Origin: a virus
Lineage: Duplodnaviria > Heunggongvirae > Uroviricota > Caudoviricetes
Length of the DNA: 11,771 bases
Virus record (IMG/VR): IMGVR_UViG_2526164631_000020
Direction: 5' to 3' (one strand)
The translations under genes were made by a program, and so were the position numbers. Positions 1,064-11,771 of the stretch are shown here, one piece after another; position 1 is the first letter of the stretch; each line of letters starts with the position of its first letter. The notes below the pieces were generated by a model. That model was given only the letters and a program-made list of their open reading frames with translations, was not told where the DNA came from and ran no database searches.

Positions 1064-2353
1064 ATGAGCCGGGTAAGGCGTCATTTTTCCGGACTGGAGA
1101 CTGACGCCAGAAAAACCGCCGGTGTCGTTGAGCAGAACCTGAGTCGTCAGGCGCTGGCTGCACAAAAAGCCGGGATTTCCGTCGGGCAGTATAAAGCGGC
1201 CATGCGAACCCTGCCCGCACAGTTTACGGATATCGCCACGCAGCTTGCCGGTGGTCAGAATCCCTGGCTGATCCTGCTGCAACAGGGCGGTCAGGTGAAG
1301 GACTCCTTCGGCGGGATGATCCCCATGCTCAGGGGGCTTGCCGGTGCGATCACCCTGCCGATGGTCGGGGTCACCTCGCTGGCGGTGGCGACAGGTGCGC
1401 TGGCGTACGCCTGGTACCAGGGGGATTCCACGCTTTCAGCGTTTAATAAAACCCTGGTTCTTTCCGGTAATCAGTCCGGACTGACTGCCGATCGTATGCT
1501 GACTCTCTCAAGAGCCGGGCAGGCAGCAGGGCTGACGTTTAACCAGGCGAGAGAGTCACTGGCAGCCCTGGTGAATGCCGGTGTGCGTGGTGGTGAACAG
1601 TTTGATGCCATCAACCAGAGTGTCGCGCGTTTTGCGTCTGCATCCGGTGTGGAGGTGGATAAAGTCGCTGAAGCCTTCGGGAAGCTGACCACTGACCCGA
1701 CGTCGGGACTGATGGCGATGGCGCGCCCGTTCCGTAACGTGACGGCAGAGCAGATTGCGTATGTTGCGCAGCTGCAGCGTTCCGGTGATGAGGCCGGGGC
1801 CTTACAGGCGGCGAACGAGGCCGCAACGAAAGGGTTTGATGACCAGACCCGCCGCCTGAAAGAGAACATGGGCACGCTGGAGACCTGGGCAGACAGGACT
1901 GCACGGGCATTCAAATCCATGTGGGATGCGGAGCTGGATATTGGTCGTCCTGATACCGCGCAGGAGATGCTGATTAAGGCAGAGGCTGCGTTTAAGAAAG
2001 CAGACGACATCTGGAATCTGCGCAAGGATGATTATTTTGTTAACGATGAAGCGCGGGCGCGTTACTGGGATGATCGTGAAAAGGCCCGTCTTGCGCTTGA
2101 AGCCGCCCGAAAGAAGGCTGAGCAGCAGACTCAACAGGACAAAAATGCGCAGCAGCAGAGCGATACCGAAGCGTCACGGCTGAAATATACCGAAGAGGCG
2201 CAGAAGGCTTACGAACGGCTGCAGACGCCGCTGGAGAAATATACCGCCCGTCAGGAAGAACTGAACAAGGCACTGAAAGACGGGAAAATCCTAGCAGGCG
2301 GATTACAACACGCTGATGGCGGCGGACGAAAAAGGATTATGAAGCGACGCTGA
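1064..2353 (+). CDS. H: Tail length tape measure protein H, N-terminal segment (the frame is open from 995 but has no ATG/GTG/TTG before 1064; the ORF is cut short by frame disruption near 2292-2330)
   Basis: 429-aa ORF, Ala/Gln/Glu-rich and coiled-coil-like (…RRHFSGLETDARKTAGVVEQ… …KAEQQTQQDKNAQQQSDTEASRLKYTEEAQKAYERLQ…), matching the lambda gpH N-terminal half as recalled. Located between T and M. Ends at TGA 2351-2353 after an aberrant tail (…KILAGGLQHADGGGRKRIMKRR*). Confidence 0.8.
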   Translation: MSRVRRHFSGLETDARKTAGVVEQNLSRQALAAQKAGISVGQYKAAMRTLPAQFTDIATQLAGGQNPWLILLQQGGQVKDSFGGMIPMLRGLAGAITLPMVGVTSLAVATGALAYAWYQGDSTLSAFNKTLVLSGNQSGLTADRMLTLSRAGQAAGLTFNQARESLAALVNAGVRGGEQFDAINQSVARFASASGVEVDKVAEAFGKLTTDPTSGLMAMARPFRNVTAEQIAYVAQLQRSGDEAGALQAANEAATKGFDDQTRRLKENMGTLETWADRTARAFKSMWDAELDIGRPDTAQEMLIKAEAAFKKADDIWNLRKDDYFVNDEARARYWDDREKARLALEAARKKAEQQTQQDKNAQQQSDTEASRLKYTEEAQKAYERLQTPLEKYTARQEELNKALKDGKILAGGLQHADGGGRKRIMKRR

Positions 2354-2373
2354 AAAAGCCGAAACAGTCCGGC

Positions 2374-3561
2374 GTGAAGGTGTCTGCGGGCGATCGTCAG
2401 GAAGACAGTGCTCATGCTGCCCTGCTGACGCTTCAGGCTGAACTCCGGACGCTGGAGAAGCATGCCGGAGCAAATGAGAAAATCAGCCAGCAGCGCCGGG
2501 ATTTGTGGAAGGCGGAGAGTCAGTTCGCGGTACTGGAGGAGGCGGCACAACGTCGCCAGCTGTCCGCACAGGAGAAATCCCTGCTGGCGCATAAAGATGA
2601 GACGCTGGAGTACAAACGCCAGCTGGCTGCACTTGGCGATAAGGTCACGTATCAGGAGCGTCTGAATGCGCTGGCGCAGCAGGCGGATAAATTCGCACAG
2701 CAGCAACGGGCAAAACGGGCCGCCATTGATGCGAAAAGCCGGGGGCTGACTGACCGGCAGGCAGAACGGGAAGCCACAGAACAGCGCCTGAAGGAACAGT
2801 ATGGCGATAATCCGCTGGCGCTGAATAACGTCATGTCAGAGCAGAAAAAGACCTGGGCGGCTGAAGACCAGCTTCGCGGGAACTGGATGGCAGGCCTGAA
2901 GTCCGGCTGGAGTGAGTGGGAAGAGAGCGCCACGGACAGTATGTCGCAGGTAAAAAGTGCAGCCACGCAGACCTTTGATGGTATTGCACAGAATATGGCG
3001 GCGATGCTGACCGGCAGTGAGCAGAACTGGCGCAGCTTCACCCGTTCCGTGCTGTCCATGATGACAGAAATTCTGCTTAAGCAGGCAATGGTGGGGATTG
3101 TCGGGAGTATCGGCAGCGCCATTGGCGGGGCTGTTGGTGGCGGCGCATCCGCGTCAGGCGGTACAGCCATTCAGGCCGCTGCGGCGAAATTCCATTTTGC
3201 AACCGGAGGGTTTACGGGAACCGGCGGCAAATATGAGCCAGCGGGGATTGTTCACCGTGGTGAGTTTGTCTTCACGAAGGAGGCAACCAGCCGGATTGGC
3301 GTGGGGAATCTTTACCGGCTGATGCGCGGCTATGCCACCGGCGGTTATGTCGGTACACCGGGCAGCATGGCAGACAGCCGGTCGCAGGCGTCCGGGACGT
3401 TTGAGCAGAATAACCATGTGGTGATTAACAACGACGGCACGAACGGGCAGATAGGGCCACAGGCGCTGAAGGCTGTTTATGACGTAGCCCGTAAGGCGGC
3501 AATGGATGTTGTGACCGGGCAGATGCGCGATGGTGGTCTGTTCTCCGGAGGTGGACGATGA
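2374..3561 (+). CDS. H: Tail length tape measure protein H, C-terminal segment (different frame from the N-terminal segment; frame open from 2317)
   Basis: 395-aa ORF (…QAELRTLEKHAGANEKISQQRRDLWKAESQ… …GGFTGTGGKYEPAGIVHRGEFVFTKEATSRIGVGNLYRLMRGYATGGYVG…) matching the lambda gpH C-terminal half as recalled. Its stop TGA 3559-3561 overlaps the M start ATG 3558 (ATGA), as at the lambda H/M junction. Confidence 0.8.
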   Translation: MKVSAGDRQEDSAHAALLTLQAELRTLEKHAGANEKISQQRRDLWKAESQFAVLEEAAQRRQLSAQEKSLLAHKDETLEYKRQLAALGDKVTYQERLNALAQQADKFAQQQRAKRAAIDAKSRGLTDRQAEREATEQRLKEQYGDNPLALNNVMSEQKKTWAAEDQLRGNWMAGLKSGWSEWEESATDSMSQVKSAATQTFDGIAQNMAAMLTGSEQNWRSFTRSVLSMMTEILLKQAMVGIVGSIGSAIGGAVGGGASASGGTAIQAAAAKFHFATGGFTGTGGKYEPAGIVHRGEFVFTKEATSRIGVGNLYRLMRGYATGGYVGTPGSMADSRSQASGTFEQNNHVVINNDGTNGQIGPQALKAVYDVARKAAMDVVTGQMRDGGLFSGGGR

Positions 3562-3887: not shown

Positions 3888-4585
3888 TGCAGGATATCCG
3901 GCAGGAAACACTGAATGAATGCACCCGTGCGGAGCAGTCGGCCAGCGTGGTGCTCTGGGAAATCGACCTGACAGAGGTCGGTGGAGAACGTTATTTTTTC
4001 TGTAATGAGCAGAACGAAAAAGGTGAGCCGGTCACCTGGCAGGGGCGACAGTATCAGCCGTATCCCATTCAGGGGAGCGGTTTTGAACTGAATGGCAAAG
4101 GCACCAGTACGCGCCCCACGCTGACGGTTTCTAACCTGTACGGTATGGTCACCGGGATGGCGGAAGATATGCAGAGTCTGGTCGGCGGAACGGTGGTCCG
4201 GCGTAAGGTTTACGCCCGTTTTCTGGATGCGGTGAACTTCGTCAACGGAAACAGTGACGCCGATCCGGAGCAGGAGGTGATCAGCCGCTGGCGCATTGAG
4301 CAGTGCAGCGAACTGAGCGCGGTCAGTGCCTCCTTTGTACTGTCCACGCCGACGGAAACGGACGGCGCTGTTTTTCCGGGACGTATCATGCTGGCCAACA
4401 CCTGCACCTGGACCTATCGCGGCGGTGAGTGCGGTTATCACGGTCCGGCGGTCGCGGATGAATATGACCAGCCAACGTCCGATATCACGAAGGATAAATG
4501 CAGCAAATGCCTGAGCGGTTGTAAGTTTCGCAATAACGTCGGCAACTTTGGCGGCTTCCTTTCCATTAACAAACTTTCGCAGTAA
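3887..4585 (+). CDS. L: Minor tail protein gpL (tail tip assembly, C-terminal Cys cluster)
   Basis: 232-aa ORF, the same length as lambda gpL. Start ATG 3887 overlaps the M stop (TGATG). The C-terminus carries the Cys motif C..C(x5)C..C (…DKCSKCLSGCKFRNN…) that is consistent with the Fe-S cluster site of gpL. Confidence 0.9.
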   Translation: MQDIRQETLNECTRAEQSASVVLWEIDLTEVGGERYFFCNEQNEKGEPVTWQGRQYQPYPIQGSGFELNGKGTSTRPTLTVSNLYGMVTGMAEDMQSLVGGTVVRRKVYARFLDAVNFVNGNSDADPEQEVISRWRIEQCSELSAVSASFVLSTPTETDGAVFPGRIMLANTCTWTYRGGECGYHGPAVADEYDQPTSDITKDKCSKCLSGCKFRNNVGNFGGFLSINKLSQ

Positions 4586-4590
4586 ATCCC

Positions 4591-5334
4591 ATGACAGAGA
4601 CAGAATCAGCGATTCTGGCGCACGCCCGGCGATGTGCGCCAGCGGAGTCGTGCGGCTTCGTGGTGAGAACGCCGGAGGGGGAAAGATATTTTCCCTGCGT
4701 GAATATTTCCGGTGAGCCGGAGGATTATTTCCGGATGGCTCCGGAGGACTGGCTGCAGGCAGAGATGCAGGGTGAGATTGTGGCGCTGGTCCACAGCCAC
4801 CCCGGTGGTCTGCCCTGGCTGAGTGAGGCTGACCGGCGGTTGCAGGTGCAGAGTGATTTGCCGTGGTGGCTGGTCTGCCGGGGGGCGATTCACAAGTTCC
4901 GCTGTGTGCCACATCTTACCGGGCGGCGCTTTGAGCACGGGGTGACGGACTGTTACACGCTGTTCCGGGACGCTTACCATCTGGCGGGGATTGAGATGCC
5001 GGATTTTCATCGTGAGGATGACTGGTGGCGTAACGGTCAGAATCTCTATCTGGATAATCTGGAGGCCACAGGGCTGTATCAGGTGCCGTTGTCAGCGGCG
5101 CAGCCGGGCGATGTGCTGCTGTGCTGTTTTGGTTCATCGGTGCCGAATCACGCCGCAATTTACTGCGGCGACGGCGAGCTGCTGCACCATATTCCTGAAC
5201 AACTGAGTAAACGAGAGAGGTACACCGACAAATGGCAGCGACGCACACACTCCCTCTGGCGTCACCGGGCATGGCACGCATCTGCCTTTACGGGGATTTA
5301 CAACGATTTGGTCGCCGCATCGACCTTCGTGTAA
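4591..5334 (+). CDS. K: Tail tip assembly protein gpK (MPN/JAMM-like plus NlpC/P60-like domains); an alternative internal start at ATG 4735 gives the 199-aa form annotated in lambda
   Basis: 247-aa ORF. JAMM-type motif HSHPGGLPWLSEAD (H-x-H-x7-S-x2-D) at codons 68-81 (nt 4792-4833). Downstream there are Cys/His-containing stretches (…GVTDCYTLF… and …NHAAIYCGDGELLHH…) typical of NlpC/P60 peptidases. Overlaps the I start by 103 nt, as in lambda. Confidence 0.85.
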   Translation: MTETESAILAHARRCAPAESCGFVVRTPEGERYFPCVNISGEPEDYFRMAPEDWLQAEMQGEIVALVHSHPGGLPWLSEADRRLQVQSDLPWWLVCRGAIHKFRCVPHLTGRRFEHGVTDCYTLFRDAYHLAGIEMPDFHREDDWWRNGQNLYLDNLEATGLYQVPLSAAQPGDVLLCCFGSSVPNHAAIYCGDGELLHHIPEQLSKRERYTDKWQRRTHSLWRHRAWHASAFTGIYNDLVAASTFV

Positions 5335-5873
5335 AAACGGGGGCCGAAGCTATCCGTGCGCTGGCCACACAGATCCCGGCGTTTCGTCAGAAACTGAATG
5401 AGGGCTGGTATCAGGTGCGCATTGCCGGGCGTGATGCAGGCGAAACCGAATTATCTGCCCGTCTTAATGAGCCGCTGGCAAATGGTGCCGTGATCCACAT
5501 TGTGCCGCGTCTGGCGGGTGCCAAAAGTGGCGGTGTTTTTCAGGCAGTGCTGGGTGCGGCGCTGATTGCTACGGCAATCTGGATGCCGGGAATCAGTATC
5601 GCTTTCAGTGACATTCTCTTTTCTATGGGGGCAGCGATGACGCTTGGTGGTGTTGCACAGATGCTGGCTCCTAAACCCCAAACCCCCCGAACGCAGACAA
5701 CGGATAACGGCAAACAGAACACCTATTTCTCCTCACTGGATAACATGGTTGCCCAGGGCAATGTTCTGCCTGTTCTGTACGGTGAAATGCGCGTGGGGTC
5801 ACGCGTGGTTTCTCAGGAGATCAGCACGGCAGACGAAGGGGATGGTGGTCAGGTTGTGGTGATTGGTCGCTGA
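5232..5873 (+). CDS. I: Tail tip assembly protein gpI
   Basis: 213-aa ORF beginning inside the K 3' end (the K/I overlap conserved in lambda). N-terminus MAATHTLPLASPGMARICLYGDLQRFGRRIDLRVKTG…, a hydrophobic central segment, and C-terminus …VLYGEMRVGSRVVSQEISTADEGDGGQVVVIGR. Appears about 10 codons shorter than lambda gpI by recollection. Confidence 0.85.
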   Translation: MAATHTLPLASPGMARICLYGDLQRFGRRIDLRVKTGAEAIRALATQIPAFRQKLNEGWYQVRIAGRDAGETELSARLNEPLANGAVIHIVPRLAGAKSGGVFQAVLGAALIATAIWMPGISIAFSDILFSMGAAMTLGGVAQMLAPKPQTPRTQTTDNGKQNTYFSSLDNMVAQGNVLPVLYGEMRVGSRVVSQEISTADEGDGGQVVVIGR

Positions 5874-5891
5874 TGCAAAATGTTTTATGTG

Positions 5892-5911
5892 AAACCGCCT
5901 CCGGGCGGTTT
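5892..5911 (+). other. Intergenic stem-loop between I and J (possible attenuator or RNA-processing structure)
   Basis: Perfect 8-bp inverted repeat AAACCGCC (5892-5899) / GGCGGTTT (5904-5911) with a 4-nt loop, followed by a T-rich but interrupted tract (ttgtcgttta). Confidence 0.3.
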
Positions 5912-5933
5912 TGTCGTTTATGGAGCATGACGA

Positions 5934-8900
5934 ATGGGCAAAGGAAGCAGTAAGGGGCATACCCCGCGCGAAGCGAAGGACAACCTGAAGTCCACGCAAC
6001 TGCTGAGTGTGATTGATGCCATCAGCGAAGGGCCGATTGACGGTCCGGTGGATGGATTAAAAAGCGTGCTGCTGAACAGTACGCCGGTGCTGGACAGTGA
6101 GGGGAATACCAATATCTCCGGTGTCACGGTGGTGTTCCGGGCTGGTGAGCAGGAGCAGACTCCGCCGGAGGGATTTGAATCCTCCGGCTCCGAGACGGTG
6201 CTGGGTACGGAAGTGAAATACGACACGCCGATCACCCGCACCATCACGTCGGCAAACATCGATCGTCTGCGTTTTACCTTCGGTGTGCAGGCACTGGTGG
6301 AAACCACCTCAAAGGGGGACAGGAATCCGTCGGAAGTCCGCCTGCTGGTTCAGATACAACGTAACGGTGGCTGGGTGACGGAAAAAGACATCACCATTAA
6401 AGGCAAAACCACCTCACAGTATCTGGCATCGGTGGTGGTGGGTAACCTGCCGCCGCGCCCGTTCAATATCCGGATGCGCAGGATGACGCCGGACAGCACC
6501 ACAGACCAGCTGCAGAACAAAACGCTCTGGTCGTCATACACCGAAATCATCGATGTGAAACAGTGCTACCCGAACACGGCACTGGTCGGCGTACAGGTGG
6601 ATTCGGAGCAGTTCGGCAGCCAGCAGGTGAGCCGTAATTATCATCTTCGCGGGCGCATTCTGCAGGTGCCGTCGAACTATAACCCGCAGACGCGACAATA
6701 CAGCGGTATCTGGGACGGAACGTTAAAACCGGCATACAGCAACAACATGGCCTGGTGTCTGTGGGATATGCTTACCCATCCGCGCTACGGCATGGGGAAA
6801 CGTCTTGGTGCGGCGGATGTGGATAAATGGGCGCTGTATGTCATCGGCCAGTACTGCGACCAGGCAGTGCCGGACGGCTTTGGCGGCACGGAGCCGCGCA
6901 TCACCTGTAATGCGTACCTGACCACACAGCGCAAGGCGTGGGATGTGCTCAGTGATTTCTGCTCGGCGATGCGCTGTATGCCGGTATGGAACGGGCAGAC
7001 GCTGACGTTCGTGCAGGACCGACCGTCGGATAAGGTGTGGACCTATAACCGCAGTAATGTGGTGATGCCGGATGATGGCGCGCCGTTCCGCTACAGCTTT
7101 AGCGCCCTGAAAGACCGCCATAATGCCGTTGAGGTGAACTGGATTGACCCGAACAACGGCTGGGAGACGGCGACAGAGCTTGTGGAGGATACGCAGGCCA
7201 TTGCCCGTTACGGTCGTAACGTCACGAAGATGGATGCCTTTGGCTGTACCAGCCGGGGGCAGGCACACCGCGCCGGGCTGTGGCTGATTAAAACAGAACT
7301 GCTGGAAACGCAGACCGTGGACTTCTGCGTGGGCGCAGAAGGGCTTCGCCATGTGCCGGGCGATGTCATTGAAATCTGTGATGATGACTATGCCGGTATC
7401 AGCACCGGTGGTCGTGTGCTGGCGGTGAACAGCCAGACCCGGACGCTGACGCTCGACCGTGAAATCACGCTGCCATCCTCCGGTACCACGCTGATAAGCC
7501 TGGTTGACGGAAGTGGCAATCCGGTCAGCGTGGAGGTTCAGTCCGTCACCGACGGCGTGAAGGTAAAAGTGAGCCGTGTTCCTGACGGTGTTGCTGAATA
7601 CAGCGTATGGGGGCTGAAGCTGCCGACGTTGCGCCAGCGCCTGTTCCGCTGCGTGAGTGTCCGTGAGAACGACGACGGCACGTACGCTGTCACAGCCGTG
7701 CAGCATGTCCCGGAAAAAGAGGCCATCGTGGATAACGGGGCGCACTTTGACGGCGACCAGAGCGGCACGGTGAATGGTGTCACGCCGCCAGCGGTGCAGC
7801 ACCTGACTGCCGAAGTCACCGCAGACAGCGGGGAGTATCAGGTGCTGGCGCGATGGGACACACCGAAGGTGGTGAAGGGCGTGAGCTTCCTGCTCCGTCT
7901 GACCGTAACAGCGGACGACGGCAGTGAGCGGCTGGTCAGCACGGCCCGGACGACGGAAACCACATACCGCTTCACGCAACTGGCGCTGGGGCGTTACACG
8001 CTGACAGTCCGGGCGGTAAATGCGTGGGGGCAGCAGGGCGATCCGGCATCGGTATCGTTCCGGATTGCGGCACCGGCAGCGCCTGTCACTATTGAACTGA
8101 TACCAGGGTATTTTCAGATAACAGCGGTCCCGAAACTGGCTGTATATGACCCGACGGTGCAGTTTGAGTTCTGGTTCTCGGAAAAGCGGATTATCGATAT
8201 CAGGCAGGTTGAAACCAGCGCGCGTTATCTTGGTACGGCGCTGTACTGGATAGCCGCCAGTAGCAATATTAAGCCGGGTTATGATTATTACTTTTATATC
8301 CGCAGCGTGAACACCGTAGGTAAATCGGCATTTGTGGAGGCCGTCGGTCGGGCGAGCGATGATGCGGAAGGTTATCTGAATTTTTATAAAGGGTTGATCA
8401 ATAAAACGCATCTCGGCAAGGAACTGCTGGAAAACTTTGAGCTGACGGAGGATAACGCCAGCAAACTGGAGGAGTTTTCGAAAGAGTGGAAGGACGCTAA
8501 CGATAAATGGAATGCCATGTGGGGCGTCAAAATTGAGCAGACCAAAGACGGCAAACATTATGTCGCGGGTATTGGCCTCAGCATGGAGGACGCGGAGGAA
8601 GGCAAGCTGAGCCAGTTTCTGGTTGCCGCTAACCGTATCGCGTTTATTGACCCGGCAAACGGGAATGAAACGCCGATGTTTGTGGCGCAGGGCAACCAGA
8701 TATTCATGAATGACGTGTTCCTGAAACGCCTGACGGCCCCCACTATTACCAGCGGTGGCAATCCACCGGCATTTTCCCTGACACCGGACGGAAAGCTGAC
8801 TGCTAAAAATGCGGATATCAGTGGCAGTGTGAATGCGAACGCCGGGACGCTCAACAATGTCACGGTAAATGAAAACTGTACGATTAAGGGCATGCTGGAG

Positions 8901-10070: not shown

Positions 10071-10080
10071 TGGGGTGAAT

Positions 10081-11394
10081 ATGGCAGTAAAGATTTCAGG
10101 TGTACTGAAAGACGGCACAGGAAAACCGGTACAAAACTGCACCATTCAGCTAAAGGCCAGACGCAACAGCACCACGGTGGTGGTGAACACGGTGGCCTCA
10201 GAAAATCCGGATGAAGCCGGGCGTTACAGCATGGACGTTGAGTACGGACAGTACAGCGTCAGTCTGTTGGTGGAGGGATTTCCGCCGTCACACGCCGGGA
10301 TTATCACCGTGTATGAGGACTCAAAGCCGGGCACACTGAATGATTTCCTCGGTGCAATGACGGAGGATGATGTCCGGCCGGAGGCACTGCGCCGTTTTGA
10401 ACTGATGGTGGAAGAGGTGGCGCGTCACGCTGAGGAGGCGAAGAAGAATGCCGGAGAGGCGGAGACGTCAGCGAGGAATGCCGGCATATCAGCCAGTCAG
10501 GCAGAAGAGAGCGCTGCAAATGCTGACACTTCAGCAGGGGAGGCATCGGAGTCAGCCCGGCAGGCGGCAGAAAGTGCAGCCTCAGCAAAGCAGTCAGAGG
10601 ATGCGTCCTCGTCCTCGGCTTCTGCGGCCGCTCAAAAAGCCAGTGAGTCATCACAAAGTGCAGCAGAAGCTGAATTGTCAAGAAAGACGGCAGAAAGTGC
10701 AGCCGGTAATGCAGCCAGGGATGCAATGACCGCAACAGAAAAAGCCCGGGAGTCAGCAGAAAGCGCACAGTCAGCGGAACAAAGCAGGATAGCGGCGGAA
10801 GACGCCGTAAACCGAATCCCCACCGTGGTGGGACCTCCCGGGCCAAAGGGAGAACCGGGGCCCGCGGGTCCTCAGGGGCCGAAGGGAGATAAAGGAGAGC
10901 GTGGCGACACCGGTCCTGTCGGGGCAACCGGTGAGCGGGGACCGGCAGGTGATGCTGGTCCGGCAGGCCCGCAGGGGCCGAAAGGCGACAGGGGAGAGCG
11001 GGGAGAGACCGGTCTGACGGGAAATGCAGGTCCACAGGGTCCAAAGGGAGATACCGGTGCGGCAGGCCCGGCTGGCCCACAGGGACCGAAAGGAGAAACA
11101 GGTGCGGCTGGCCCGGTGGGGGCAACCGGACCTCAGGGACCGAAGGGCGACCCGGGGGAGACACAAATCCGTTTTCGTCTGGGGCCGGGAAACATTATTG
11201 AGACAAACAGCCATGGCTGGTTCCCGGATACAGATGGCGCACTCATCACCGGACTGACCTTTCTTGACCCCAAAGATGCCACACAGGTTCAGGGTTTTTT
11301 TCAGCATTTGCAGGTCAGGTTTGGTGACGGGCCGTGGCAGGATGTTAAGGGGCTGGATGAAGTGGGCAGTGATACAGGCAGAACAGGAGAATGA
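10081..11394 (+). CDS. stf: Side tail fibre protein with lambda Stf-like N-terminal anchor, Ala/Ser/Glu-rich low-complexity segment, collagen-like Gly-X-Y region and a ~76-aa C-terminal tip domain
   Basis: ATG at 10081 (the ORF track starts at GTG 10075). N-terminus [38 protein letters not shown]… matches the lambda Stf N-terminus as recalled. Contains 37 consecutive G-X-Y triplets. Stop TGA at 11392-11394. Confidence 0.85.
10831..11163 (+). repeat. Collagen-like Gly-X-Y triplet repeat region inside stf (37 uninterrupted triplets, with GPQGPKG recurring five times)
   Basis: Translation [111 protein letters not shown]. The nucleotide sequence is GC-rich with imperfect internal repeats. Confidence 0.9.
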
Positions 11395-11395
11395 C

Positions 11396-11665
11396 ATGAA
11401 CGTACTAAAAAAACTTATGCAGCGTCTGTGCGGTTGCGGAAAGCATGATGACCGTGAACACGGGGAGTTACTTACAGCACAACTGCGTCTGGGGCCGGCA
11501 GACATTCTGGAGTCAGATGAGAATGGCATTATCCCGGAGCAGGCCAGGGTAATCACGCAGGTGGTGATACTGGATGCGGATAAAAAGCAGATACAGTGTG
11601 TGGTAAGACCGCTGCAAATCCTGCGTGCTGACGGGACGTGGGAAAATATTGGCGGGATGAAATAG
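11396..11665 (+). CDS. Hypothetical 89-aa protein, paralogue of the stf C-terminal domain
   Basis: ATG at 11396 with SD AGGAGA at 11385-11390, one base after the stf stop; TAG at 11663-11665. The segment LRLGPADILESDENGIIPEQARVITQVVILDADKKQIQCVVRPLQILRADGTWENIGG aligns with stf [60 protein letters not shown]. An identical 13-mer CGTCTGGGGCCGG occurs at 11176-11188 and 11486-11498. Confidence 0.6.
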   Translation: MNVLKKLMQRLCGCGKHDDREHGELLTAQLRLGPADILESDENGIIPEQARVITQVVILDADKKQIQCVVRPLQILRADGTWENIGGMK

Positions 11666-11771
11666 CCGACGAGTTCACAAAAACCGAACAGATCTGCCTG
11701 ATTGCCGAGGAAGAGCAACCGAAACTGATGGTAATTGACTCGATCCAGGTGATGCATATGGCGGATGTACC
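11632..11771 (+). pseudogene. radA: RadA/Sms-like recombinase gene fragment (internal RecA-like ATPase-domain segment, 5'-truncated; runs off the window end)
   Basis: Frame opens after TGA at 11629-11631 and reads RDVGKYWRDEIADEFTKTEQICLIAEEEQPKLMVIDSIQVMHMADV. The stretch EQICLIAEEEQPKLMVIDSIQVMHMADV (from about 11686) matches my recollection of an internal region of E. coli RadA/Sms (the hydrophobic-IDSIQ motif). The preceding residues do not resemble RadA and there is no N-terminal zinc-finger region. Confidence 0.45.

Follow-up and report, generated by a model that had tools for sequence, protein, structure and literature searches.

A stand-alone paralogue of the side tail fibre tip domain is encoded directly behind the fibre gene in lambdoid prophages

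Why does a lambda-like prophage encode the tip domain of its side tail fibre twice, once at the end of the fibre and once as a separate small protein, and what might the second copy do? We addressed this question in an 11,771-nucleotide stretch of DNA (hereafter the window), which is the tail end of a lambda-like prophage. Its genes run in the order tail assembly chaperone frames G and T, the tape-measure gene, M, L, K, I, J, lom, stf and an 89-aa ORF (the small ORF). The tape-measure gene is split into two frames and the prophage is damaged. The stf frame spans 10075–11394 and is open from a GTG at 10075; homologues annotated by PGAP start at the ATG equivalent to 10081, which gives a protein of 437 aa. 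From N- to C-terminus, Stf comprises a PfN domain, a coiled coil, a collagen triple helix and a PfC tip, and is of the type of EPclA, whose architecture and trimeric state have been described (Ghosh et al. 2012, PMC3368898). The features at this end of the window are:

10081–11394, plus strand: stf, EPclA-type side tail fibre with PF08400 (E 6.6e-70), PF01391 collagen and PF06820; start as in the PGAP homologues.
11167–11358, plus strand: PfC (Phage_fiber_C) domain, fibre-borne copy, at the C-terminus of stf.
11385–11398, plus strand: coupling junction, read from the sequence, with AGGAG, the stf TGA (11392–11394), C (11395) and the ATG of the small ORF.
11396–11665, plus strand: stand-alone PfC gene (89 aa), a PHROG 576 member and the equivalent of phi24B 'gp59'.
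11396–11476, plus strand: N-terminal 27-residue extension of the small ORF (MNVLKKLMQRLCGCGKHDDREHGELLT), with a predicted short helix at residues 3–12 and a Cys-x-Cys motif.
11477–11662, plus strand: PfC domain of the small ORF, stand-alone copy; PF06820 at residues 28–89, E 9.9e-35.
11666–11686, plus strand: truncated 5' part of the terminator that normally lies 3' of the small ORF, with the left arm ...CACAAAAACCG alone left.
11685–11771, plus strand: interior fragment of the host gene radA (98.8% identity), fused directly to the prophage end; context, outside the module.

The small ORF is a true paralogue of the C-terminal domain of Stf, as the preliminary description of this DNA had claimed. 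Pairwise alignment by BLASTP matched residues 29–88 of the small ORF to residues 366–427 of Stf with 21 identities in 62 positions (34%, E 1e-10), in line with the earlier alignment of residues ~28–89 with the Stf C-terminus. We took a score above the gathering score (25 bits) with the domain covered as membership of PF06820, and both proteins belong: residues 28–89 of the small ORF (E 9.9e-35, 119.2 bits) and residues 365–428 of Stf (E 3e-35, 120.8 bits) each cover model positions 1–64 of 64. At the nucleotide level the two whole domains share about 50% identity, with differences at all bases. The identical 13-mer CGTCTGGGGCCGG that had been noticed in both domains occurs exactly twice, at 11176–11188 and 11486–11498, had no match in 200 shuffles, and begins a 53-nt direct repeat of 72% identity. 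It encodes the conserved R-L-G-P motif. Synonymous variants (GGG>GGA, CCG>CCA) are found in 5 of 29 pattern-caught small-ORF copies from other prophages, thus the identity of the 13-mer is not itself under selection. We read the exact match as a probable product of shared ancestry and protein constraint, rather than as an independently selected site. The pair does not have the character of a diversity-generating retroelement (DGR), as had been stated. The two repeats of a DGR are near-identical, differ mainly at adenines and lie near a reverse transcriptase; here the domains are about 50% identical in nucleotides, their differences fall at all bases, and Pfam gave no reverse-transcriptase family for the forward-strand ORFs scanned.

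The small ORF begins one base after the stf stop codon (TGA, C, ATG) and has its own Shine-Dalgarno sequence, both as first described. The AGGAG at 11385–11389 stands 6 nt from the ATG at 11396, and upstream of this ATG its frame stays open for 44 codons. Preceding the PfC domain, the 27-residue extension contains the helix at residues 3–12, taken from the secondary structure of an AF2 model at low confidence. The AF2 monomer as a whole was poor (pLDDT 55, from a 15-sequence alignment) and was not used for a fold search. The KK and Cys pattern of the extension is retained in a diverged homologue (P0124), and the alleles C14Y and C14H occur among related loci. We considered the L-C-G-C motif as a lipoprotein or signal peptide and rejected it, given that it is without a hydrophobic core and that the C14Y and C14H alleles exist.

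In related prophages, a perfect hairpin terminator (CACAAAAACCGGAG-TCCGG-CTCCGGTTTTT) lies directly 3' of the small ORF in 96/99 loci. In the window, the match to other prophages ends at 11686 and the radA fusion falls inside this terminator. The radA fragment has 98.8% identity to radA across 4,846 genomes, and the prophage–radA junction itself was found in 0 of 5,426 complete E. coli genomes. The window's copy of the 89-aa ORF adds nothing new in itself, being a further example in a decayed prophage.

Both the gene and its domain call are already known from Pfam, PHROG 576 and PGAP. The phrog_576 profile matches residues 1–89 over positions 1–89 of 89 (E 8.8e-60), and PGAP names the product 'phage tail fiber C-terminal domain-containing protein'. 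Other labels differ in what they imply. The phi24B GenBank record describes its homologue as 'phage fiber C superfamily; contains a RLGP motif', one GenBank record has 'alternate tail fiber tip', and the curators of Lambda h434 imm21 chose 'tail fiber assembly chaperone'. Stand-alone PF06820 relatives include the PHROG 576 and PGAP entries, phi24B ADN68460 ('gp59'), BP-4795 ORF76 and AU5Stx1 atfT. The listed phage matches have the same 89-aa length and 91–99% amino acid identity to the window's small ORF, and share the junction of stop codon, one nucleotide and ATG after a PfC-tipped fibre gene, as well as the same downstream terminator. The window's copy differs from these relatives in its setting (a damaged prophage with a radA fusion in the terminator), not in its protein. 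A sequence search of the PDB gave no relevant match. For the small ORF, NCBIfam gave none, and the PADLOC defence models gave none at E up to 0.1. The Tfa families (Caudo_TAP and related) do not match it either, and Pfam at E up to 1 returned only PF06820. We found no paper discussing the small ORF in the literature on PF06820, Phage_fiber_C, RLGP, 2B8 and AU5Stx1. In a CMAT study of phi24B lysogens, one clone overlaps the small ORF but was assigned to the next gene.

The family is narrow and is tied to the fibre gene. A word-indexed search found 172 protein clusters, for which the only organisms named are Escherichia coli, E. albertii and Citrobacter rodentium, and at 50% identity a set of 1.84 billion proteins contains only 80 representatives of the whole PfC domain. 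With one genome per species, the small ORF was found in E. albertii and two evident contaminant contigs only. The segment of stf plus the small ORF, at a coverage of at least 80%, is present in about 693 of the 5,426 complete E. coli genomes. Among phage records, 296 contain the stf tip domain, and every one of them also matches the small ORF, with an identity of at least 80% in 294 and of 60–80% in 2; they include 434, BP-4795, 2B8, 933W-type phages and phi24B. The association also holds at the level of gene order. The small ORF is directly downstream of a PfC-ended fibre gene in the window, phi24B, 2B8, BP-4795, Lambda h434 imm21 and the diverged locus discussed below, and the two-gene module follows a 437-aa siphovirus fibre as well as the 645-aa lateral fibre of the podovirus phi24B.

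We compared this layout in two sets of 80 prophage loci each, one chosen by the small ORF and the other by the stf tip. The geometry of stop codon, one nucleotide and ATG is found in 76/77 loci and also in phi24B, and the 19-nt junction AGAACAGGAGAATGACATG is identical in 116/120 junctions of related prophage loci. Every upstream frame of at least 80 codons (71/71, with 28 distinct sequences) ends in a PfC domain. Conversely, the small ORF is intact at 89 aa in 72/75 loci chosen through the stf tip that have enough downstream sequence. The pairwise pN/pS of its PfC domain is 0.094 in the stf-chosen set, where the fibre-borne PfC has 0.20. It is 0.048 in the other set, which was selected by identity to the small protein and is biased toward the small ORF. 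These values indicate that the domain of the small ORF is under purifying selection. The N-terminal 27 residues have a pN/pS of about 0.35, pointing to weaker constraint than on the domain. A second terminator precedes stf in a related locus, placing terminators on both sides of the pair, and no promoter-like site was found in one such locus (L001) between the end of J and a point just beyond the small ORF. Thus, stf and the small ORF look like a late pair that depends on read-through.

A diverged locus (L168) gives an indication of the age of the duplication. The C-terminus of its fibre has no collagen within the 241 residues examined and carries a PfC domain that is weakly similar. A stand-alone PfC gene of 79 aa follows, with its own AGGAGG and a terminator downstream; it overlaps the fibre gene by 14 nt, such that its ATG lies 14 nt before the TAA stop of the fibre. 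Across the two lineages the stand-alone copies share 65% identity and the fibre-borne copies 40%, whereas the cross comparisons give 31–38%. Thus, the copies were distinct before the lineages split, and both have been kept. The duplication is therefore old, predating the split of the lineages, and the stand-alone copy evolves more slowly than the fibre tip (65% versus 40%).

The product of the gene has been detected in phi24B. In the part of the source covered here, the supplementary purified-virion proteome of a 2026 preprint (doi 10.64898/2026.04.10.717836) contains the peptides ADGTWENIGGMK and VITQVVILDADKK, which are unique to the phi24B homologue, gp59, a protein 91% identical to that of the window. 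The same table carries the authors' row label 'Spike or just gp59?', and their search database included hypothetical gp61–gp59 frameshift fusions under the names 'Fusion_6159_FS1/FS2' (doi 10.64898/2026.04.10.717836). Peptides across such a gp61–gp59 junction are absent from the part of the proteome table covered, where TGED and MNILK both have 0 matches. The main text of the preprint does not mention gp59. The two supplementary-table peptides could reflect a co-purifying cytoplasmic protein.

We propose, with what we consider an even chance of being right, that the small ORF encodes a late-expressed accessory subunit which docks on the trimeric tip of the fibre and forms a fixed module with PfC-ended fibre genes. 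The small ORF would be a functional late gene, transcribed with stf and last before the terminator. Translation would start from its own Shine-Dalgarno sequence within the last stf codons, and is probably coupled to the termination of stf. The product would consist of a short N-terminal helix and linker followed by the PfC domain. In isolation the PfC domain is trimeric, and in the fibre it makes up the knob at the distal end (Ghosh et al. 2012, PMC3368898); therefore a stand-alone PfC with a short N-terminal helix should trimerise too. The small protein may thus form a PfC trimer of its own or join that of the fibre. It is probably not strictly needed for trimerisation, since recombinant full-length EPclA trimerises and a Col-PfC fragment refolds without it (PMC3368898). 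The small protein would dock on the distal tip of Stf through PfC–PfC contacts and stay on the virion, where it would either cap the tip or persist as an assembly factor, filling the place held by Tfa or gp38-type proteins on other fibres. The chaperone-like domain suggested in the preliminary description comes close to this proposal. We infer this docking, its stoichiometry and the role of the protein (assembly, stabilisation or receptor contact); what we observe is that the small ORF is a conserved paralogue, that it co-occurs with the fibre in a constant gene order and that its product is present in virion preparations. One point counts against a role at the tip: a distal receptor-binding tip should be more variable than the domain behind it, but of the two copies the small ORF is the better conserved. 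More tentatively, and at somewhat less than an even chance, the arrangement may be one of self-mimicry, in which a paralogue of the fibre's trimerisation tip caps that same tip, either with two PfC trimers stacked coaxially or through mixed assembly.

The accessory subunit can be set against known fibre systems. The PfC of EPclA and EPclB (PMC3368898) belongs to the same Pfam domain as the small ORF, and is by experiment a trimerisation module at the globular distal end. The small ORF has 34% identity to the fibre-borne PfC, no collagen stalk and an N-terminal extension of 27 residues, and is without the 12-residue C-terminal tail of the fibre-borne domain. A term search of Ghosh et al. 2012 (PMC3368898) found no mention of it. 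Lambda Tfa and the tail fibre assembly proteins of Mu and P2 (Caudo_TAP type) are unrelated to the small ORF in sequence; the small ORF is a paralogue of the tip domain it accompanies, whereas Tfa is not. The gp38-type adhesins of T2, T6 and S16-like phages are small proteins encoded beside the fibre gene that sit on the distal end of the fibre in virions, and the T4 long fibre joins gp36 and gp37 end to end as trimers with shared motifs. Neither has homology to the small ORF. Furthermore, a host-range adhesin of the gp38 type is expected to be the more variable partner, and the opposite holds for the small ORF, which is better conserved than the fibre-borne domain.

Other readings of the small ORF were weighed against docking at the tip. 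The small protein may instead be a transient assembly chaperone, analogous to Tfa, whose homologous fold templates or protects the nascent PfC of Stf and which is then released rather than becoming a virion component. Its gene immediately follows stf and closes the late operon, as tfa does in lambda. It is better conserved than the tip that it would assist, and the Lambda h434 imm21 curators labelled it as a chaperone; PfC expressed alone was undetectable until fused to thioredoxin (PMC3368898). We nevertheless consider this account rather unlikely, as the small ORF matches no Tfa family (at E up to 1, Pfam gives only PF06820), full-length EPclA folds and refolds as a trimer without a small protein (PMC3368898), and peptides of the small protein are present in purified phi24B virions. 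Recoding at GAA-UGA-C, by a +1 shift or stop bypass, would fuse Stf to the small ORF and give the fibre two successive PfC domains. The small ORF is in the +1 frame and starts one base past the UGA-C stop, with AGGAG just upstream, a layout that loosely recalls the prfB frameshift site, and its frame is open for the 44 codons noted above; the phi24B authors also provided for such fusions in their search database. However, the tRNA could not re-pair in a slip from GAA to AAU. The AGGAG, moreover, overlaps the codon in the P site rather than lying 3 nt upstream of it, whereas its distance to the ATG would suit initiation there. The diverged lineage has a different junction, with the ATG 14 nt before the TAA and its own AGGAGG, and no junction peptide appears in the part of the phi24B proteome table covered. 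We regard recoding as very improbable, also as the source of a mere fraction of two-headed Stf-PfC-PfC chains. The same low standing applies to a decoy or superinfection-exclusion factor, expressed by the lysogen, that would mimic the fibre tip and mask the receptor. A small protein with a domain of the receptor-binding type, at the edge of the tail operon and next to loci with accessory genes such as T3SS effectors, could be imagined in this role, and the preliminary description had raised a decoy tip domain. However, the protein is without a hydrophobic signal sequence and its N-terminus, MNVLKKLMQRLCGCGK, reads as too polar for export. The gene has no promoter-like site, lies in a pair flanked by terminators, matches nothing in PADLOC and is tightly coupled to stf.

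The small ORF had also been suggested to be a remnant of an alternative tip left by cassette exchange, or a substrate for tip switching by recombination at the shared 13-mer. We treated these together, as a non-functional leftover or a silent cassette that replaces the stf tip. The paralogous domains do share the 13-mer, in direct orientation, and one GenBank record speaks of an alternate tip. Rare rearranged forms also exist. One (P0065) joins collagen in frame to the small-ORF domain at a contig edge, and another (P0121) joins the N-terminus of the small ORF to the PfC of stf, in a tandem of stf, chimera and small ORF; no representative protein has two PfC domains or is a read-through fusion. 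However, each of these rare rearrangements is on one contig, in two samples, and they join at GGNCCGGCAG or CAGATG microhomologies (6–9 nt) instead of at the 13-mer. Recombination between direct repeats would irreversibly delete the stf tip, and no recombinase family came up when the forward-strand ORFs were scanned with Pfam. An invertible tip switch of the Mu Gin, P1 Cin or e14 Pin type uses inverted crossover sites on either side of the alternative tips and a serine invertase. Here the 13-mer and the 53-nt repeat are direct, and no invertase family was found among the scanned ORFs; the inverted repeats amount to three pairs of 12–13 nt, none of which flanks the domains. These observations give switching at the 13-mer no support. 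A remnant is contradicted by the strong purifying selection, an ORF that is intact in about 96% of loci, the match in 296/296 phage records, the retention of both copies in the diverged lineage and the detection of the product in virions. In our estimate, a leftover or silent cassette is highly doubtful.

The residual interest of the family lies in its putative function; the window adds only another copy of the gene. Among the lambdoid phages of EHEC and EPEC, most of the Stx-converting and effector-carrying ones have PfC-tipped collagen-like fibres, of which a single genome often contains many copies. The small partner gene always accompanies these fibres and is made. If true, self-mimicry would be a kind of fibre accessory not described so far, in which a paralogue of the tip replaces the unrelated Tfa or gp38 fold. 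If the small protein caps or builds the tip, it would belong in models of phage adsorption and of the spread of toxin genes, and would have to be supplied along with such fibres when engineered lambda particles are fitted with them.

Two rearranged forms of the PfC domains (Pfam PF06820) were observed among the comparison loci. A natural tandem is present in L166 (GCA_005381265.1, positions 1382-3246), where stf, of 437 aa, is followed by a 92-aa chimera (P0121) and then by a normal 89-aa small ORF. P0121 joins the N-terminus of the small ORF to the C-terminus of the stf PfC domain, and the arrangement looks like the product of unequal exchange between the paralogous domains at a CAGATG microhomology. 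In the second form (P0065; GCA_038404665.1, L165 4-291), the PfC domain of the small ORF is fused in frame straight onto the collagen repeats, with the join at …GERGPA|DILESD…. The sequence reads as if ~560 bp had been lost between GGNCCGGCAG microhomologies; P0065 sits at the contig edge, so that the 5' part of the gene lies outside the contig.

Terminator-like hairpins were found in the comparison locus L001 after J (5292-5315) and after lom (5969-5990), and the equivalent positions in the window are just 3' of these two genes. With the terminator that follows the small ORF, these hairpins enclose the stf/small-ORF pair as a unit that would be transcribed only by read-through.

The phi24B homologue of the small ORF, gp59, lies in locus L163 (HM208303, 38090-40298). 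In the 2026 cryo-EM preprint on phi24B, the proteomics database included hypothetical gp61-gp59 frameshift fusions, and the authors labelled the proteomics result 'Spike or just gp59?'; gp59 is not discussed in the main text (doi 10.64898/2026.04.10.717836).

The features of the window that bear on the integrity of its prophage are:

1064-3561, tape-measure gene, present as two ORFs in different frames
1064-2353, tape-measure ORF 1, with a TMP_2 domain
2374-3561, tape-measure ORF 2, with a Tape_meas_lam_C domain
11685-11771, interior fragment of radA, 98.8% identity to radA

The tape-measure stretch gives a single continuous alignment with phage 434 at 94.8% identity and is 2 nt longer (2498 versus 2496 nt). 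This one-piece alignment with two extra nucleotides suggests that the split is a frameshift and, therefore, that the prophage is defective. At the right end (11666-11771), similarity to other prophages extends no further than 11686, a position within the left arm of the usual terminator after the small ORF. The prophage-radA junction was absent from all 5,426 complete E. coli genomes searched. Either a deletion or rearrangement has truncated the prophage together with radA, or the junction is a chimera of the assembly.

Sequences near-identical to the E. coli prophage stf or small ORF were also observed in a 725-bp contig of Xanthomonas pisi DSM 18956 (L170) and a very short contig of the Clostridiales MAG W0P5.003 (L171); both assemblies are almost certainly contaminated. 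Lambda h434 imm21 (OM418627, L167), a laboratory hybrid, carries T3SS effector homologues (NleB, NleC and NleH fragments) 3' of the small ORF at 4448-7648, a stretch bearing the curators' note 'imm434 region'. Effector genes of this kind would not be expected in a classical K-12 laboratory phage.

A diverged form of the fibre/stand-alone PfC module occurs in L168 (GCA_008387015.1, 23-974). Its fibre ends in a weakly similar PfC domain, with collagen absent from the 241 residues available, and the stand-alone PfC gene (P0124, 79 aa), which has a 14-nt overlap with the fibre gene, is followed by a terminator. Downstream of the module are genes for NleG and SopA-like effectors. A further protein, P0141 (565 aa), contains four tandem repeats of ~70 residues each, followed by collagen repeats. 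The C-terminal half of each repeat is similar to the second half of PfC (…VVVLDADAKTATGQMGILQVRRADGTWMEIPALKG), which suggests that PfC-like modules can also occur in series along a fibre shaft.
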